A stretch of DNA of 64,000 nucleotides from Candidatus Bathyarchaeota archaeon (GTDB taxonomy: Archaea; Thermoproteota; Bathyarchaeia; Bathyarchaeales; Bathyarchaeaceae), in contig CAVOMX010000010.1 of the NCBI GenBank assembly GCA_963697165.1, positions 1 through 64,000 on the forward strand, in the 5' to 3' direction. The position numbers were made by a program. Positions 1 through 27,000 of the stretch are shown here, piece by piece (position 1 is the stretch's first letter; every line of letters begins with the position of its first letter).

Positions 1-3000
1 TTAGACTATTTTGAATGATAAAAAGAGGCTAAAAACTAGCCGCACTCGCAAATCGAACCGAGACTGGTGGCCAAACCAGTTGAACCTGAATATTTTGCAC
101 CAGCATTCCCCCTTTCTAATCCGATGGGCAAGGAGTTCAACTACGCTGATGAATTCAAGAAACTTGACCTGGAAGCCGTGAAGAAGGACCTCTATGTGCT
201 GATGACCGACTCGAAGGATTGGTGGCCGGCCGATTACGGTCACTACGGGGGACTCTTCATCCGGATGGCATGGCACAGCGCAGGCACCTACCGCACCGGC
301 GACGGCCGCGGAGGTGTATCCGGGGGCGCGCAGCGTTTCCCGCCTCTCAACAGTTGGCCGGACAACGTTAGCCTCGACAAGGCGCGCCGTTTGCTTTGGC
401 CGATCAAGCAGAAATACGGCAGAAAAATATCATGGGCCGACCTGATGATCCTCGCCGGCAACTGCGCTCTAGAGTCGATGGGATTTAAGACCTTCGGTTT
501 TGGCGGTGGACGCGAGGACATCTGGGAGCCGCAAGAGGACGTCTACTGGGGTTCCGAAACCACCTGGCTGGGTGACAAACGGTATTCAGGGGAGAGGGAT
601 CTTGAAAATCCGCTTGCTGCTGTGCAGATGGGGCTAATCTACGTCAATCCGGAAGGTCCAAACGGCCAACCTAGTGCGGTAGCGTCGGGTCGAGACGTTC
701 GAGAAACTTTTGCACGTATGGCGATGAACGATGAAGAGACGGTGGCACTCATCGCCGGTGGACACACATTCGGTAAATGTCATGGAGCTGGTGATCCCAC
801 CCTTATGGGTCCTGAGCCAGAAGCTGCCGGTATTGAAGAGCAGGGTCTTGGCTGGAAAAGCAGTTTTGGTAGCGGCAAAGGGGATGACACGATTACCAGT
901 GGCATCGAAGGCGCATGGACGCCGAAACCGACTCAGTGGGACATGGGTTATTTCGACATGTTGTTCGGCTACGATTATGATTTGGTAAAGAGCCCCGCTG
1001 GTGCCTGGCAGTGGGTTCCGGTCAATCCGGACGAAAAGGATCTCGCGCCAGCCGCTCACGATCCTTCGAAGCGGGTTACGACCATCATGACCACAGCAGA
1101 CATGTCGTTGCGGATGGATCCGATCTATCGGCCGATCGCGAAGCGGTTCCACGAGAACCCGGAGAAATTCGCAGATGCGTTTGCTCGGGCGTGGTTCAAG
1201 CTGACGCACCGGGACATGGGCCCCCGTTCTCGCTATCTGGGCCCGGAGGTTCCTGAGGAAGATCTCATTTGGCAAGACCCAGTGCCCACAGTCGATCATG
1301 AGCTCATCAATAGCCAAGACATCGCAGACCTTAAGAGTGAGATCCTTGCCTCGGGTCTGTCGATCTCGGAGCTGGTCTCGACCGCTTGGGCGTCGGCATC
1401 TACGTTCCGTGGCTCCGATAAGCGCGGGGGCGCAAATGGAGCGCGTATCCGTCTTGCGCCACAAAAGGATTGGGAAATCAACCAGCCTGAACAACTGGCT
1501 AAAGTGCTCGAAAACCTCAAGGGTATCCAGAAGGCATTCAACGACACGCAGTCCGGCGACAAGAAGGTTTCGCTCGCTGACTTGATTGTCCTTGGTGGGT
1601 GCGCAGGTGTTGAGCAAGCTGCCAAGAATGCTGGTTACGAAATAACTGTTCCCTTCACGCCAGGACGCACGGATGCATTGCAGGAGCAAACCGACGTGGA
1701 GTCATTTGCCGTACTTGAACCAGCTGCAGATGGGTTCCGTAACTATCTCAAAACCAAATACGCTGTATCGGCAGAGGAACTACTGGTTGATCGTGCGCAG
1801 CTGCTGACGCTTACCGCTCCTGAAATGACGGTTCTTGTTGGTGGTATGCGCGTTTTGAATGCGAATTTTGGAAAGTCCCAGCATGGTGTCTTCACCAAGC
1901 GGCCAGAGATGCTCACAAATGACTTCTTTGTGAATCTGCTTAACATGAACACGACATGGAAGGCAAACTCAGAAGATGAAAGTGTATTTGAGGGTCGTGA
2001 TTGCACAACAGGCAAACTCAAGTGGACTGGCACTCGTGTCGACCTCATCTTCGGTTCGAACGCCCAACTCCGGGCTTTGGCGGAAGTCTACGCATGCGAG
2101 GATTCCAAGGAAAAGTTCCTGCACGACTTCGTAGCAGCATGGAACAAGGTAATGAACCTTGACCGCTTCGACCTCGCCTGATAGTAGTGAGAGTTAGCTA
2201 ACAACGACAACAGGGTAAACCACCCGGTCCAAATCTATAAGTTTAGATTTGAACTCTCTTCGCAGGGGAAAAAATCTCCTGCAAAACTCCCATTTTATTA
2301 ATTCTTAAGATATGTCCACTTTAGCAGTAGGGATTTTACCGGGGACCAATTGAGATATCACCCGTTTTTATCCCGCAAATTCCCTTTTTTTACACATATG
2401 GTAAAAATTTAATCAACAAACCCAAACATAATATGATATAGTAATGTTACAAATAGAAATAAAATAGAAAGTATATTGATTGTCTAAGAAAATGTTATGG
2501 CCTGAGTTATTATTCAGTTTTTTTCTAGGCGATAAGAAAATTTTTCTCTCAAAACTAATTGTTATAGGTCTTATACTGATAATGAGCCGAATAATAGCAT
2601 TAATAATTATCTCCTAACGAAACTCAAGACTTGACAATAAAAAAGAAGGAAAACAGAGAAAGCTAAGCATTATTGATTATGTCTCTTCTTCTCCGATAAC
2701 TTCAGTGCTAGTTGTGATGTAGTTTCCTTCAGGTACCCAGTAGATTGGTTTTTCGTTTCGAAGCAAATCAGCTATATATACTGCGTTTTCTTTTGGAGGG
2801 AACCAGTTTACATTACGCCAGTTTCCATCTACTTTATAATGGAAGATGATCCAGGGGCGCTCATTTTTTCGGTCGTACCGAAGGTACATAGTTTTCAACC
2901 ATGTAAACCTTGTAAACCATTTTTTATCACCAGAAAATCAGGGTTAGGGGGTTTCTCCTTCACCCACGGGCTCTTTTCCCGTTCCGAGGAATCCTCTATT

Positions 3001-24000: not shown

Positions 24001-27000
24001 TGGTTCGCTAGAATCTTTATTATCCATGTCTATTCACTACATCCTCTAAAAGCGCTTTCTGATGCTTTAAGATTTGTTCTGAAACTAATGTCCTCATTAA
24101 TTCCAGTATGTACAAGGAATTTTTGGGGTTAAAATTTACCTCCAAACCCAATAAATGAACGGTTCCAACTTCTAGAACACCTTGGTCTATTAAATAGAAT
24201 TAAATCTCTTAAATATTGTGTACTACAACTGATAAAATGCTGAGAAATTGGATTGACAGGATAAGGAGGTGATAATAATTGGCAGTAGCAGCTTATGCAG
24301 GATGGGTATTGGAGCGCACTAAAAAAGCACTCAAAGAAGCGGGAGCTACTTCTGAAGAGACTGCTAAAAAACCCAGAGAACTCAAACTTGATGAAAAGTG
24401 GCTGAAAATGAGTGCCAATACAATCATACCTTCTGGTGTTGTTGCAACAAAGGATAGAAGATATTATTTAATATGCAGAAACGAAAAGCAACAATGACTT
24501 GATTACAAGGCATTCTATGTTTCTATTATTAAGAAAAGCCTCAGACTATTACCCTAATCTGACCTCGTCTCTAGCATGGACTGTGACCCGTCATGTGATA
24601 TGTCCCTCAAATCCCCTTTTTCCATAATAGTTATTGTTTCTTATTTTTGAAAATCAAAATAATTGTTCCGTGTTCCGCGTGGTGGGGTCGCGGGGATTTG
24701 CACCGGGGACAATTGGTGACATCACCCGTTTATTTTCCCGCAAATTCCTCCTTTTTTGAGCATTAAATCCTAAAACCCTGAACCAAAAATTGTCAGATTT
24801 TTTAAAAATTGGAGAAGATTCCTAGTATCACAGGAATATCTGTTCCTGCATGAAATAAAATTGAACCTATCAGACTATCTGTTTTTTGTATTACTGCTCC
24901 GAATGCTAAACCGAGCAAAAATACAATGAAAAGGAATAATATCATTACTGGTGAATAGGTCTCACCTATATGAGCTAAGGCAAATATCATCGATTGTAAA
25001 AGGTTAGATGGATCAACTCCCAATAATGTCTCATATTTTTTCAGGAAAAACCCCCTAAACTGAATTTCCTCCTTAATTCCATTCGAAAACACAAAAACCA
25101 AAATCCATGGTAACCAAGCAATTAGCTTGTTAAATGTCAAGTTTTTTCCTTCGTAGAGTAATGTAGACGTCCAGACTGATGTTGCTAGGAAGAATAGAAA
25201 AAGTATTATTCCAATTGTCAACCCCAGTTTGAGTTTGCCTTTTCTTAAGTATATTGAAGCTAAATCTTTCTTCGTAACCTTAGTTAATAATACAATTGGA
25301 ATTATTACAATTAATGAGCTGAGAACCTTAAATAGAATAGTTAAATCCATCCGAGAAGGAGAAATCCAATATAATAATGACTGATTCGAATACAGAAAAT
25401 ACTCAAATATAGTAACAATAGAAGAAATAAAGAACGCAAAGATCAAAGGTAAGAATTTAGCAAGATAGGTTTTTCTGCGAATTAAAAGAGCACTTGTGAA
25501 GAAAATTATACAGACTGCAATTCTATATATTAATTTAATTGGGTCAGGAAGAAGTAGAGGAATAGTGAAAATGGAAATTCCGCAAGTAAGAAAAAATGCA
25601 AACAATGTTGATCTTCTAAATTTCTTATCAGTTTCCATTTTACTCAAAGTGTTGTTTCTCATTTAGAAAATATAACTTTTATAATTACGCGCTTTGCGTA
25701 GGTGGATTAGATATTAACATTAAATAATAAATAGCGGTTACTCAATTTGGATCCTATCAGCTTAAATAATCCTGATTTGAGCTTTGTTTGTTAAAATAGG
25801 CGTTTTGGTGGGGTCGCGGGGATTTGAACCCCGGACCTCGCGCGCCCCGGGCGCGAATCTTGGACCATGCTAGACCACGACCCCCCAGGAACAGATCCCG
25901 ACCCTAAATACGAGATCTCCCTTTTACGGAAGATTCTTCCACCGTCATCATATTCGCCGGTGACGTATTCTAAGCCGAGTTCGATCAGTTCGGTTGCTTC
26001 TTTTACGTTCACTGCAACCTTACTGATGAATCTTTCTTCCTGAGGCACATCTACGAGCTGAATATATTTTAGTGTTGTCTTAATGCTCCGATGACCAAGC
26101 AAATGCTGAACATATAGGATGTCTTTGGTTCTAGCGTACTCTGTGGTGGCCTTCCAGTGCCTAATCGTATGAAAGTGAATCATTAGGATCCTTGGGTTTC
26201 CCAGCTTGTGAGCAATCTTCTTTCTCCTCTTCTTCATTGTGATCCCATGGAAACCGCCAACCATAACGCTCCTTCTAATGCAAATACAGGCTATGAGCTG
26301 CTAAACCCAAAACGAAACTAGCCAAGCAACCAACAACAAAATTAATCAAATCAATCAAAAAATATCCACCTAACCAAAAGCAAACGCCTCTAACTCTAGT
26401 TTTTTCATTTCAATCGTAGCATACACACTAAGAGCAACAGCCCACCAAACATCATCATGCGTCCCATAAGGATGACTAAAACAAATAGCACCATTCCTAC
26501 GCAACTCAAAACGTTCAACATTCATTTCACTACAAAGGTCTCCACGATACGGCCGTTCCCAAGTCAAAAACGGATAAAAAAACCGCTGAGCCATCATCCT
26601 CTCCTTTAGTAAGCTAGCCATCTCGCTTTTCCTAGAAGTTTTGAAAGTAACTCCTTCGACGTTGTTGATTCCAGCCTCCTCCATATCACTAATTATAGAG
26701 GGTCCTTCCCTTGTGTTGCGCGCGCGTATCACTTGTTCCTGCATTAACTGGCTGCCACACTCAATGAGACACCTTAGAAGAGCTTATGAGCAACACAAAA
26801 GAAGCCATCAGCCTATACATAAAAACATTAGAAAAAGCGGAAAAACAGTAGGGATAACAAGAAACAGCGTAGTGACACTCTTTAGCAAAAGCACCAAACC
26901 AGAATTCATCAAATACATAACCGAAGATCTCACAGAATTGATAGACTGGTCTAACTAGACATCGAGTTTTTGTGAGAAATATAAAATAGAGAACCTGTGG

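Follow-up and report, generated by a model that had tools for sequence, protein, structure and literature searches.

Probable tandem accretion of trans-mobilised, CIME-like gene modules behind a tRNA-Pro gene in a Bathyarchaeia genome

Behind tRNA-Pro(GGG) on contig C10 of a Bathyarchaeia genome lie 25 kb of small gene modules set off by one recurring repeat, which raises the question of what builds such an array and whether its modules move. Bathyarchaeia are plentiful in anoxic sediments, and almost none has been cultured. We analysed the first 64,000 nucleotides of this contig (the window), whose array the genome-wide survey's note had read as an integron-like platform served by a recombinase, with the gene fragment g00641 abutting the tRNA. 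We give a probability of about 0.6 to the reading that CIME-like modules, moved in trans, have accreted here in tandem (Table 1).

Table 1. Features of the array on contig C10 and of the 5' side of its target tRNA.
Feature	Positions	Strand	Remarks
tRNA-Pro(GGG), target (attB/attL)	25806..25884	-	3' flank is the modules' common L flank
g00641, C-terminal remnant of Zn-ribbon tyrosine integrase, 5'-side type	25791..26264	-	residues 331-433 of 435; frame continues through tRNA
C-terminal remnant, probably of a terminase large subunit; belongs with g00641 to one relic element	26370..26744	-	DNA 78-86% identical to G008 C25 and G000 C8 stretches overlapping tblastn terL matches; Pfam search without match
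Module 1, CAAX protease (24802-25662)	24700..25805	-
Arm site, Pro tail with 0 mismatches	24680..24756	-	flank 24640-24679 holds the decayed 3' end of an integrase gene (last codons and stop)
D-arm-type site	24565..24622	-	arm variant and reverse complement of tRNA-Pro 5' part
Module 2, mosaic	18847..24700	-	72-aa ORF, small ORFs, wHTH, ABC ATPase (split), permease
Arm site, Pro tail with 0 mismatches, L flank	18827..18903	-
Module 3, two Zn-dependent dehydrogenase genes (plus strand)	16616..18847	-	98.5% to G019 C10, site to site
Arm site, L flank	16580..16656	-	perfect 32-nt copy of tRNA nt 48-79
Decayed arm site without tRNA tail	16407..16469	-	about 180 bp from preceding site
Arm site, X flank	15174..15237	-	right half departs from tRNA after TTCAA; closes module with 203-aa ORF and wHTH
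Arm site, tail with 3 mismatches, L flank	13220..13304	-	closes module with 538-aa repeat protein
Arm site, tail with 3 mismatches, L flank	11822..11896	-	closes methyltransferase module
Arm site, tail with 4 mismatches	9088..9164	-	closes Hcp (split) and B12-binding module
Truncated arm, box only	8168..8200	-	closes Zn-ribbon/DUF2807 module
Arm site, tail with 4 mismatches, L flank	7800..7877	-
Arm, right half non-tRNA	5021..5070	-	closes HerA-like ATPase module (5170-7710)
Arm site, shortened box, tail with 1 mismatch	4646..4711	-
Second D-arm-type site	4548..4606	-	inside duplicate of module 2 start
Arm site, decayed tail, L flank	4029..4107	-
Single-gene module, 484 bp, 71-aa ORF 3718-3933	3568..4051	-	whole in G024 and G001, 70-76%
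Decayed arm site, L flank	3527..3603	-
Arm site without tRNA tail	2327..2391	-	starts KatG module
KatG module, katG 67-2181 (plus strand)	1..2337	-	truncated by contig end; 53% GC against 38% in rest of array

The tRNA gene lies where the survey's note had placed it. An 18-nt box matched seven times with ≤3 mismatches in the 64-kb window against 0.06 expected, and none of 100 shuffles reached seven; the copy at 15233, also listed by the note, has four mismatches, and the boxes start 3 nt off its positions. A profile search returned 15 sites in C10:1-25 kb and 46 genome-wide, with none in the reversed-genome control, and all 15 were oriented as the tRNA, as had been claimed. Since two further arm sites of another (D-arm) type lie near 24622 and 4606, the 25 kb hold 17 sites, so that the repeat is real and the earlier count of at least eight was too low. 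Each site is built of a 43-nt arm, a junction in the T-loop, a tRNA tail and then a flank. The tail, which the note had expected in every unit, was recognisable as that of tRNA-Pro at 10 of 15 sites, the remaining five having other right halves.

Across 45 arm junctions, whose tails were chosen at ≤4 mismatches, identity to the tRNA was 80–100% over the 21-nt tail, 47% at the base preceding it, 33–58% in the left T-stem and ≤7% from 12 nt outward. One flank (L) was common to 22 of the 45, with unrelated cargo and no integrase trace. The same arm was joined to tails of Pro, Ile, Arg and Met-called tRNAs, and also to the 5' portions of tRNA-Pro and tRNA-Glu in reverse. The note's reading of the repeats as site-specific recombination junctions was upheld, but the covariation it saw in the palindrome was not: in the 88 distinct sites (of 154) that fit GGnGAnnTCnCC, positions 3/10 were T/A in 14, A/T in 24, T/T in 34, A/A in 6 and other in 10 (Fisher p = 0.43).

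On the opposite strand the box reads TCCCCCTTTTTT, and several cargo genes begin 25–220 bp inward of an arm. Both features would suit a regulatory or RNA element (terminator, promoter or tRNA-like small RNA) spread between accessory genes, a reading that we consider extremely unlikely, because the arm is joined to different tRNA tails and reversed 5' parts and also closes an integrase element. Attempts to find an attC-like or RNA structure at the sites ended in rejection, as eight folds (four sites, both strands) were no better than shuffles (z −1.59 to +0.02), and Rfam matched only the tRNA-like part of the sites, apart from chance matches. A secondary promoter or terminator role of the arm is possible.

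Many sites lie near contig ends and the assembly is indel-rich (one extra base at 15752 is absent from four of four runs), as would be expected if short repeats had produced chimeric joins of strain variants. Such an artefact is hardly credible, considering that arrays of the same build occur in the single-contig genomes G024 and G033, that a record set titled single-cell genome holds six sites on three contigs (L160-L162, L167-L169), and that the arm sites differ among themselves (mean column identity 71%). Contig-only data of four runs demonstrated no circle, empty site or excision; joints such as 16628-18877, 18873-24734 and 24739-7871 fall at sites, with sides that are short and may be other modules' junctions. 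Arm sites and their islands would account for the breaking of Bathyarchaeia genomes into contigs at such places.

Tail mismatches grew with distance from the tRNA among the ten Pro-tail sites (Spearman 0.85, p = 0.002), the coefficient being 0.42 (p = 0.12) over all 15. Judged from these sequences, new units are added beside the tRNA, in agreement with the note's view of successive insertion. The modules are small, with 16 in the 25 kb and a median of 1278 bp.

The parent of such units is seen in genome G019, where a 10.7-kb element at the same tRNA (contig C11) runs from tRNA-Pro through a 435-aa Zn-ribbon tyrosine integrase, a Prim-Pol/D5 helicase, an N6 methylase and a terminase to the 43-nt arm. 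Its tRNA end and arm end have only CAAATCC in common, and no conjugation genes were found in this one annotated parent. By sequence, the autonomous form carries an inward-facing Zn-ribbon tyrosine integrase by the tRNA together with a primase-helicase, to which G019 adds terminase genes, and it terminates in the arm plus a short core common to the tRNA T-loop. Of 20 near-full integrase loci, several of them with little flanking DNA, only 8 were accompanied by an arm that lay upstream and faced outward. Lambda-type integrases bind arm sites through an N-terminal domain; the integrase model has a separate 40-aa beta-rich Zn-ribbon domain (pLDDT 71–79; IS1/IS1595-Zn-like, with a score below cut-off) on a 100-aa disordered linker. 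The best family and fold matches of the integrase were archaeal XerA-like; the fold search returned XerA as readily as integron and phage integrases, and left the Zn ribbon unplaced.

Derivatives have lost this integrase stepwise while keeping both ends. By tRNAs and sites the series runs from a full gene in G006 C15, with the arm 1.4 kb off, through C-terminal pieces beginning at residue 279, 326, 332, 349, 352 or 369, to 30 codons on C24 and the last codons only in the flank of site 24756. The 30 codons, which lie in the first C24 module, are the integrase's last, and 27 of their 30 residues equal an intact Ile-type integrase. These relics correct the note's picture, in which no integrase Pfam match occurred in any module except g00641 at the tRNA, and they show that modules are decay products of integrative elements. 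Searching positions 1-25800 by tblastn with more than 40 family and backbone proteins gave no credible match, the two weak ones lying inside other genes. The second array that the note had described behind tRNA-Ile on C24 comprises five sites, but an Ile tail is missing from all of them: Pro tails occur at two, another two carry neither kind, and one is cut by the contig end.

A true integron-like platform, in which a sedentary integrase by the tRNA (whether g00641 or an intact counterpart) takes up cassettes with the tRNA as attI, gains from the polar arrays of small modules and from an intact integrase at the equivalent place in G003, with remnants in G000, G005 and G019. We nevertheless regard it as very unlikely. 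Without the first 330 of the family's 435 residues, g00641 lacks two catalytic residues, which rules it out as a working integrase; its locus shares 81% nucleotide identity along 487 bp with the intact G003 locus, a comparison by which g00641 is the inactive relic left by an element on the other (5') side of the tRNA. In G003 that integrase gene overlaps the tRNA by 25 bp, with all catalytic motifs upstream of the overlap, and forms the end of a small element whose other ORFs, judged from their translations, are AbrB-like and wHTH-like; no partner arm was seen for this element in 24 kb. For comparison with split (suicidal) integrases of SSV1/pTN3 type, whose gene contains attP and is split on integration, the 3'-side integrases are whole and stop 17–42 bp before the tRNA. 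A quick integrase tree grouped three 5'-side proteins with a cut one (SH-aLRT 98), a fourth (L130) falling outside. Moreover, arrays occur in G001, G006, G013 and G018, where no integrase was called upstream of tRNA-Pro. Against the TIGR02249 cut-off of 265 bits, the best IntI score in G000 was 40.7 bits, and the intact G019 and G003 integrases reached 79.4 and 66.6 bits. At its head the array has a tRNA with the remnant g00641 rather than an attI beside an intact intI, cargo lies on both strands rather than mostly in one orientation, and none of the eight folds was attC-like. The array is not a true integron.

We then compared modules between genomes. The dehydrogenase module matches C10 of G019 at 98.5% over 2232 bp, beginning inside one site and stopping after the next tail, with unrelated neighbours on both sides, whereas other shared DNA is 68–89% identical (background). 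The HerA-like ATPase module is 85% identical to a module on G019 C13, up to the arm. Among 79 inner modules of 16 genomes, eight pairs in five families match whole and in different orders, which bears out the shuffling of integrase-less modules as units; only one whole-module pair exceeds 95%. An integrase match occurred in two of the 79, a count that excludes first modules and modules >7 kb, where integrases lie. The three paralogies of the note and the 96.6% KatG duplicate at C24:142135-144499 were reproduced; this duplicate stands behind a different arm, and the tail-less X flank follows different arms at five sites, joined at the T-loop. For the trans-mobilised reading, the X flank and KatG suggest that internal junctions recombine. 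Some units that lack an integrase are thus present in full, from one site to the next, in other genomes and in different orders.

Tandem integration followed by integrase loss, which the note had named as its own refutation, is part of this answer and not an alternative to it, given the parent and the truncated integrases. A stricter form holds that autonomous elements decayed into immobile scars, with modules shared by homologous recombination or by transfer of larger island blocks and the 70–130-bp repeats serving as crossover anchors. The integrase decay series and the tail decay with distance fit it, as does the finding that 18 of 20 examined loci with cargo homologues lack a site, including 95–97% copies of the methyltransferase stretch and 90–98% copies of a 295-bp piece. 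Cargo therefore travels without sites as well, a point that also weighs against trans-mobilisation. Passages of PMC8371274 ascribe integrase-less archaeal elements to loss and module exchange to homologous recombination among tandem elements, and the tycheposon preprint (bioRxiv 10.1101/2020.12.28.424599) gives, in the part concerned, the same model. Immobile scars do not readily explain a 98.5% module bounded by sites between unrelated neighbours, five families whole in other orders, the L flank at junctions with unrelated cargo, or tail-less flanks joined to different arms at the same T-loop point; we therefore consider this account improbable, though far from negligible.

Under trans-mobilisation, a Bathyarchaeia family of tRNA-targeting integrative elements would build the tandem-accretion island. 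Internal junctions (arm, core and next flank) appear to have the build of an attP, so an integrase supplied in trans could act at them. Coming from a visiting or co-resident element, it would excise the module between two junctions as a circle, which may then insert at the tRNA or another junction. Strand exchange would be double-stranded and lie near CAAATCC (nt 59-65 of the 79-nt tRNA), with the arm as an accessory binding site, possibly of the Zn ribbon, and a helper virus or element could provide cell-to-cell transfer. Modules would thereby act like gene cassettes, yet be CIME-like derivatives of integrative elements. Because some blocks occur whole and reordered in related species, the junctions resemble a reusable gene-swapping site. 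In G000 (81% complete), two integrases of the family are intact, but each has only about 37% identity to the Pro-type one and neither stops beside a tRNA, so no matching helper was found.

The process has known relatives. In Streptococcus, CIMEs have lost integration genes, keep attL and attR, pile up at a target gene's 3' end, where chimeric att sites separate them, and are moved by another element's integrase (as described in PMC5704250). Bathyarchaeia modules are likewise att-flanked units of an integrative element, as the arm closing the G019 element indicates; they have no integrase or transfer genes of their own within positions 1-25800, and stand in tandem at the 3' end of the target with chimeric junctions. 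Unlike the CIMEs described there, they are archaeal, dense (16 per 25 kb, median about 1.3 kb) and linked to one arm with many tRNA targets, and the parent has primase-helicase and terminase genes, conjugation genes being unseen. Tycheposons of Prochlorococcus, according to parts of their preprint, have an inward-facing integrase at a tRNA end, primase/helicase genes and cargo or satellite forms, in islands with partial tRNA copies throughout and the newest element beside the tRNA. These traits recur in Bathyarchaeia, and the G019 element matches the tycheposon layout; however, the host domain differs, membership there is defined by a lineage-specific integrase clade whereas the likeness here is one of gene layout, and the preprint's islands consist mostly of unbounded flank rather than blocks bounded by a conserved arm. 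Archaeal tandem elements and the cryptic integrated elements of Thaumarchaeota share tyrosine integrase, tRNA targets, tandem arrays and integrase loss, and have a primpol-SF3 helicase; passages of PMC8371274 and PMC6563490 also describe 5'-half targeting by pTN3-like integrases and integrase-defined elements of 2.6–98 kb, and do not name a conserved arm, a Zn-ribbon integrase or a Bathyarchaeia case. According to the review passages (PMC8371274), those archaeal integrases that have been characterised work without a directionality factor. Integrons and CALINs, including archaeal ones (bioRxiv 10.1101/2022.02.06.479319, in part), have in common with this system the polar array, small blocks each closed by one recombination site, and reordering; they differ in IntI, attI and the single-strand attC hairpin, whereas here genes lie on both strands, the target is a tRNA and the sites derive from a mobile-element attP. 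That accretion at tRNAs is already known as a general process caps the surprise.

An arm-only model, built because model R1 (56 of 60 genomes) contains the tRNA tail and may count tRNA genes, matched 50 of 60 family genomes and 31 of 150 class genomes, the class matches including weak ones near E 1e-4 without a control. The exact arm pattern, which is too strict, occurred in G000 alone among 151 class genomes. The 43-nt arm can serve as a marker that delimits islands block by block, and points to traded cargo such as dehydrogenases and genes for oxidative and nitrosative stress (katG, hcp); PADLOC returned only generic ATPase, methylase and wHTH matches and no defence system. A possible but doubtful extension is a class-wide, double-stranded cassette exchange, in which Zn-ribbon integrases of satellite-like elements recognise one conserved 43-nt arm. 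Integrase-less single-gene modules with this arm would then sustain themselves as a lineage of their own (L flank), being cut out, rearranged and handed from species to species among many tRNA sites, either at the T arm or, in reverse, at the D arm. Such a system would have arisen from attP sites and match integrons in function, with the Zn ribbon as a first arm-binding domain for archaeal integrases. The system thus named is small and testable, consisting of a single 435-aa integrase, one tRNA site and one junction. As to the D-arm-type site 24622, one idea for its origin is a tRNA inverted between two inward-facing integrases.

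Searching with a profile of the site, in which the conserved 43-nt arm is joined in the T-loop to a tRNA tail followed by a flank, revealed 15 sites over the 25 kb that follow tRNA-Pro(GGG), all on the tRNA strand. Across the whole source genome (G000, assembly 81% complete, with the window as its contig C10) there were 46 profile matches, and 0 in the reversed genome. A site begins with an A-run, GGGGGAGTTTGCGGGA, a spacer of ~7 nt and the palindrome GG(T/A)GA(T/C)(A/G)TC(T/A)CCA, and continues with a variable left T-stem, CAAATCCCCGCGACCCCACCA and the flank. The genome-wide survey's note had located the tRNA correctly, and the box that it described was indeed repeated in the window (7 matches vs 0.06 expected); the palindrome that it called covarying is imperfect and showed no covariation. 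Two more arms run into the 5′ part of tRNA-Pro in reversed orientation. The tRNA tails decay with distance from the tRNA. The commonest flank, L, occurs at 22 of 45 junctions and in 7 of 17 tRNA rows, 2 of those 7 being other tRNAs, and no integrase trace was seen in it. GC content is 38% in the array, 40% in the remaining contig and 53% in the KatG block at the array's far end. Among one genome per species, an arm pattern had 13 exact matches, 11 of them in records titled Bathyarchaeia, Bathyarchaeum, Bathyarchaeota or Thermoproteota.

Coordinates of features in the window (contig C10), on other contigs of G000 and in a locus of the related genome G003
Feature	Contig or locus	Position	Strand
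tRNA-Pro(GGG)	C10	25806-25884	minus
Arms joined to reversed 5′ part of tRNA-Pro	C10	near 24622; near 4606	
Dehydrogenase module	C10	16616-18847	
Site with last integrase codons and stop	C10	24756	
Segment inverted relative to G019 C11	C10	25806-41518	
295-bp piece	C10	24227-24522; also 4230-4505	
42-nt tandem repeats (14-aa units)	C10	14581-14790	
Site with upstream DNA like that of L159	C10	4107	
Isolated Zn-ribbon integrase N-termini	C24; C25	2148-2273; 182373-182497	
Second tyrosine recombinase family	C23; C5; C8	1-1167; 16879-18041; 37869-39020	
Arm before TATA-binding-protein-like 3′ end	C23	20350	minus
Arms with common non-tRNA right half (…GAACAGCCATTTCC)	C6; C8; C16; C17	61144, 61738; 33878; 56035, 56968; 83204, 84037	
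Arms with second non-tRNA right half (…GGGAACATTTCAGCGAATGTATCC)	C6; C17	63026; 83021	
Box-like repeats (AAAAA…GGGAGTTTTG)	L071 (G003)	5400-6390	

The parent element lies behind the same tRNA-Pro in the related genome G019, where a 435-aa tyrosine integrase on the opposite strand is followed by a Prim-Pol/D5 primase-helicase, small regulators, an N6 methylase, a small HTH gene, a terminase large subunit and then the arm; CAAATCC is the only sequence common to the tRNA end and the arm end. Its build resembles that of a tycheposon, as described in parts of a preprint. Relatives of this integrase were present in 41 of 60 family genomes. Among 37 integrase loci (including a few duplicates), 9 stop 17-42 bp short of the 3′ end of a tRNA called on the opposite strand, 5 are same-strand integrases ending at or inside the tRNA 5′ end, and 23 stop without a called tRNA; an arm was found in the expected place at 8 of 20 near-full loci. 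No intact Pro-type integrase was found in the G000 assembly. At two of its contig ends, isolated Zn-ribbon integrase N-termini adjoin Ile-tail sites. A second, unrelated tyrosine recombinase family has three copies in G000, one ending ~160 bp before tRNA-Gly(TCC).

Integrases beside tRNAs or sites were either whole or reduced to their last 40-160 residues, and the shortest relics comprise 30 codons (first C24 module) or the last codons and stop, indicating that some modules, at the least, arose by shrinkage of such elements. The tyrosine-recombinase fragment g00641 covers residues 331-433 only; it is part of a relic element situated across the tRNA from the array, and it cannot drive the array. 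It is of the 5′-side type (same strand, tRNA 5′ end), is 81% identical in DNA to an intact G003 gene and is preceded by a probable terminase remnant. Reversed-5′ arm sites occur in G000, G006, G009 and G033, plus one for tRNA-Glu, and would match the leftovers expected of 5′-side elements. Compared with G019, the G000 core segment lying upstream of the tRNA has the inverted orientation, with one break at the tRNA/element end.

Whole modules were shared between genomes. Over 2232 bp, the dehydrogenase module matches one of G019 at 98.5% identity, with identity starting within one site (the arm spacer differs) and stopping just past the next tail; the remaining shared DNA is 68-89% identical. 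A comparison of 79 inner modules (lying between two sites on the same strand, 300-7000 bp long, from the fetched loci of 16 genomes) gave 8 pairs in 5 families that matched over >85% of their length. Order varied among the recurring families A, C and D: G024 has A-D-C, G019 has D adjoining the dehydrogenase module, and in G000 the A, D and dehydrogenase modules lie apart from one another, at three places. Because a tail-less flank, unable to restore a tRNA, stands behind different arms at the T-loop (5 sites), and Pro tails were found behind tRNA-Ile and, in G024, behind tRNA-Asp, it follows that recombination occurs at internal junctions or that blocks move from one locus to another. In the four sequencing runs compared, all of them contigs, neither excision nor a module circle was shown. 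Of the 20 loci retrieved for their homology to the window's cargo, 18 lacked a site, 95-97% copies among them, indicating that cargo also travels by other routes and that module 2 is a mosaic.

The integron-like platform put forward in the note did not hold: the array is not an integron by the tests in the parts consulted of bioRxiv 2022.02.06.479319, and it has the sequence hallmarks of cis-mobilizable element (CIME) accretion as set out in passages of PMC5704250. Tandem archaeal elements and integrase loss are already described in passages of PMC8371274 and PMC6563490. Neither this arm nor Bathyarchaeia arrays of the kind were described in the mostly open-access texts searched, without supplements, including the passages available from PMC10848311, PMC11529989 and bioRxiv 2026.01.13.699239. 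We conclude that the array is real and unusually dense, built by accretion within an element system that spans the family.

Sequence comparison directly supports the site anatomy, parent element, decay, polarity and shared whole modules. Beyond these, an integrase acting in trans may exchange double strands near CAAATCC, presumably at junctions having the attP build, with the arm as a putative accessory site and the N-terminal Zn ribbon as its candidate reader, by analogy with the arm-binding domains that bacterial integrases have (PMC8138268, in part). Modules would transfer as satellite cargo, since terminase genes are present. Speaking against this reading are the failure to see excision or circles, the cargo homologues that lack sites, the arm found in place at 8 of 20 near-full integrase loci and the missing Pro-type integrase in the G000 assembly.

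Array cargo, on both strands, comprises a CAAX protease, an ABC exporter, wHTH regulators, two Zn dehydrogenases, a repeat protein (a 538-aa ORF holding the tandem repeats), a methyltransferase, Hcp with a B12-binding protein, DUF2807, a HerA-like ATPase, KatG and small ORFs. Where frames are split, an assembly indel is the probable cause, as demonstrated in one case. The 295-bp piece holds a 72-75-aa ORF that belongs to no NCBIfam or Pfam family. Genomes of several genera (G020, G018, G081, G067, G032) carry it at 90-98% identity, without arm sites and in two cases within 1.2 kb of a tRNA; it is a small mobile unit of its own or was transferred very recently.

Arms also stand before other sequences. 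The one on C23, read by eye, precedes the reversed 3′ end of a TATA-binding-protein-like gene and reads like a protein-gene target; others share one of two non-tRNA right halves. Behind tRNA-Pro in G003, three box-like repeats between small genes, missed by the arm profile, are perhaps an arm variant. Two 2.4-2.5-kb contigs in records titled bacteria (L158 and L159; Anaerolineales, Phycisphaerae) carry an arm and an archaeal tRNA-Pro tail, the upstream DNA of L159 being nearly the same as that of a window site, and are probably mis-binned archaeal contigs.
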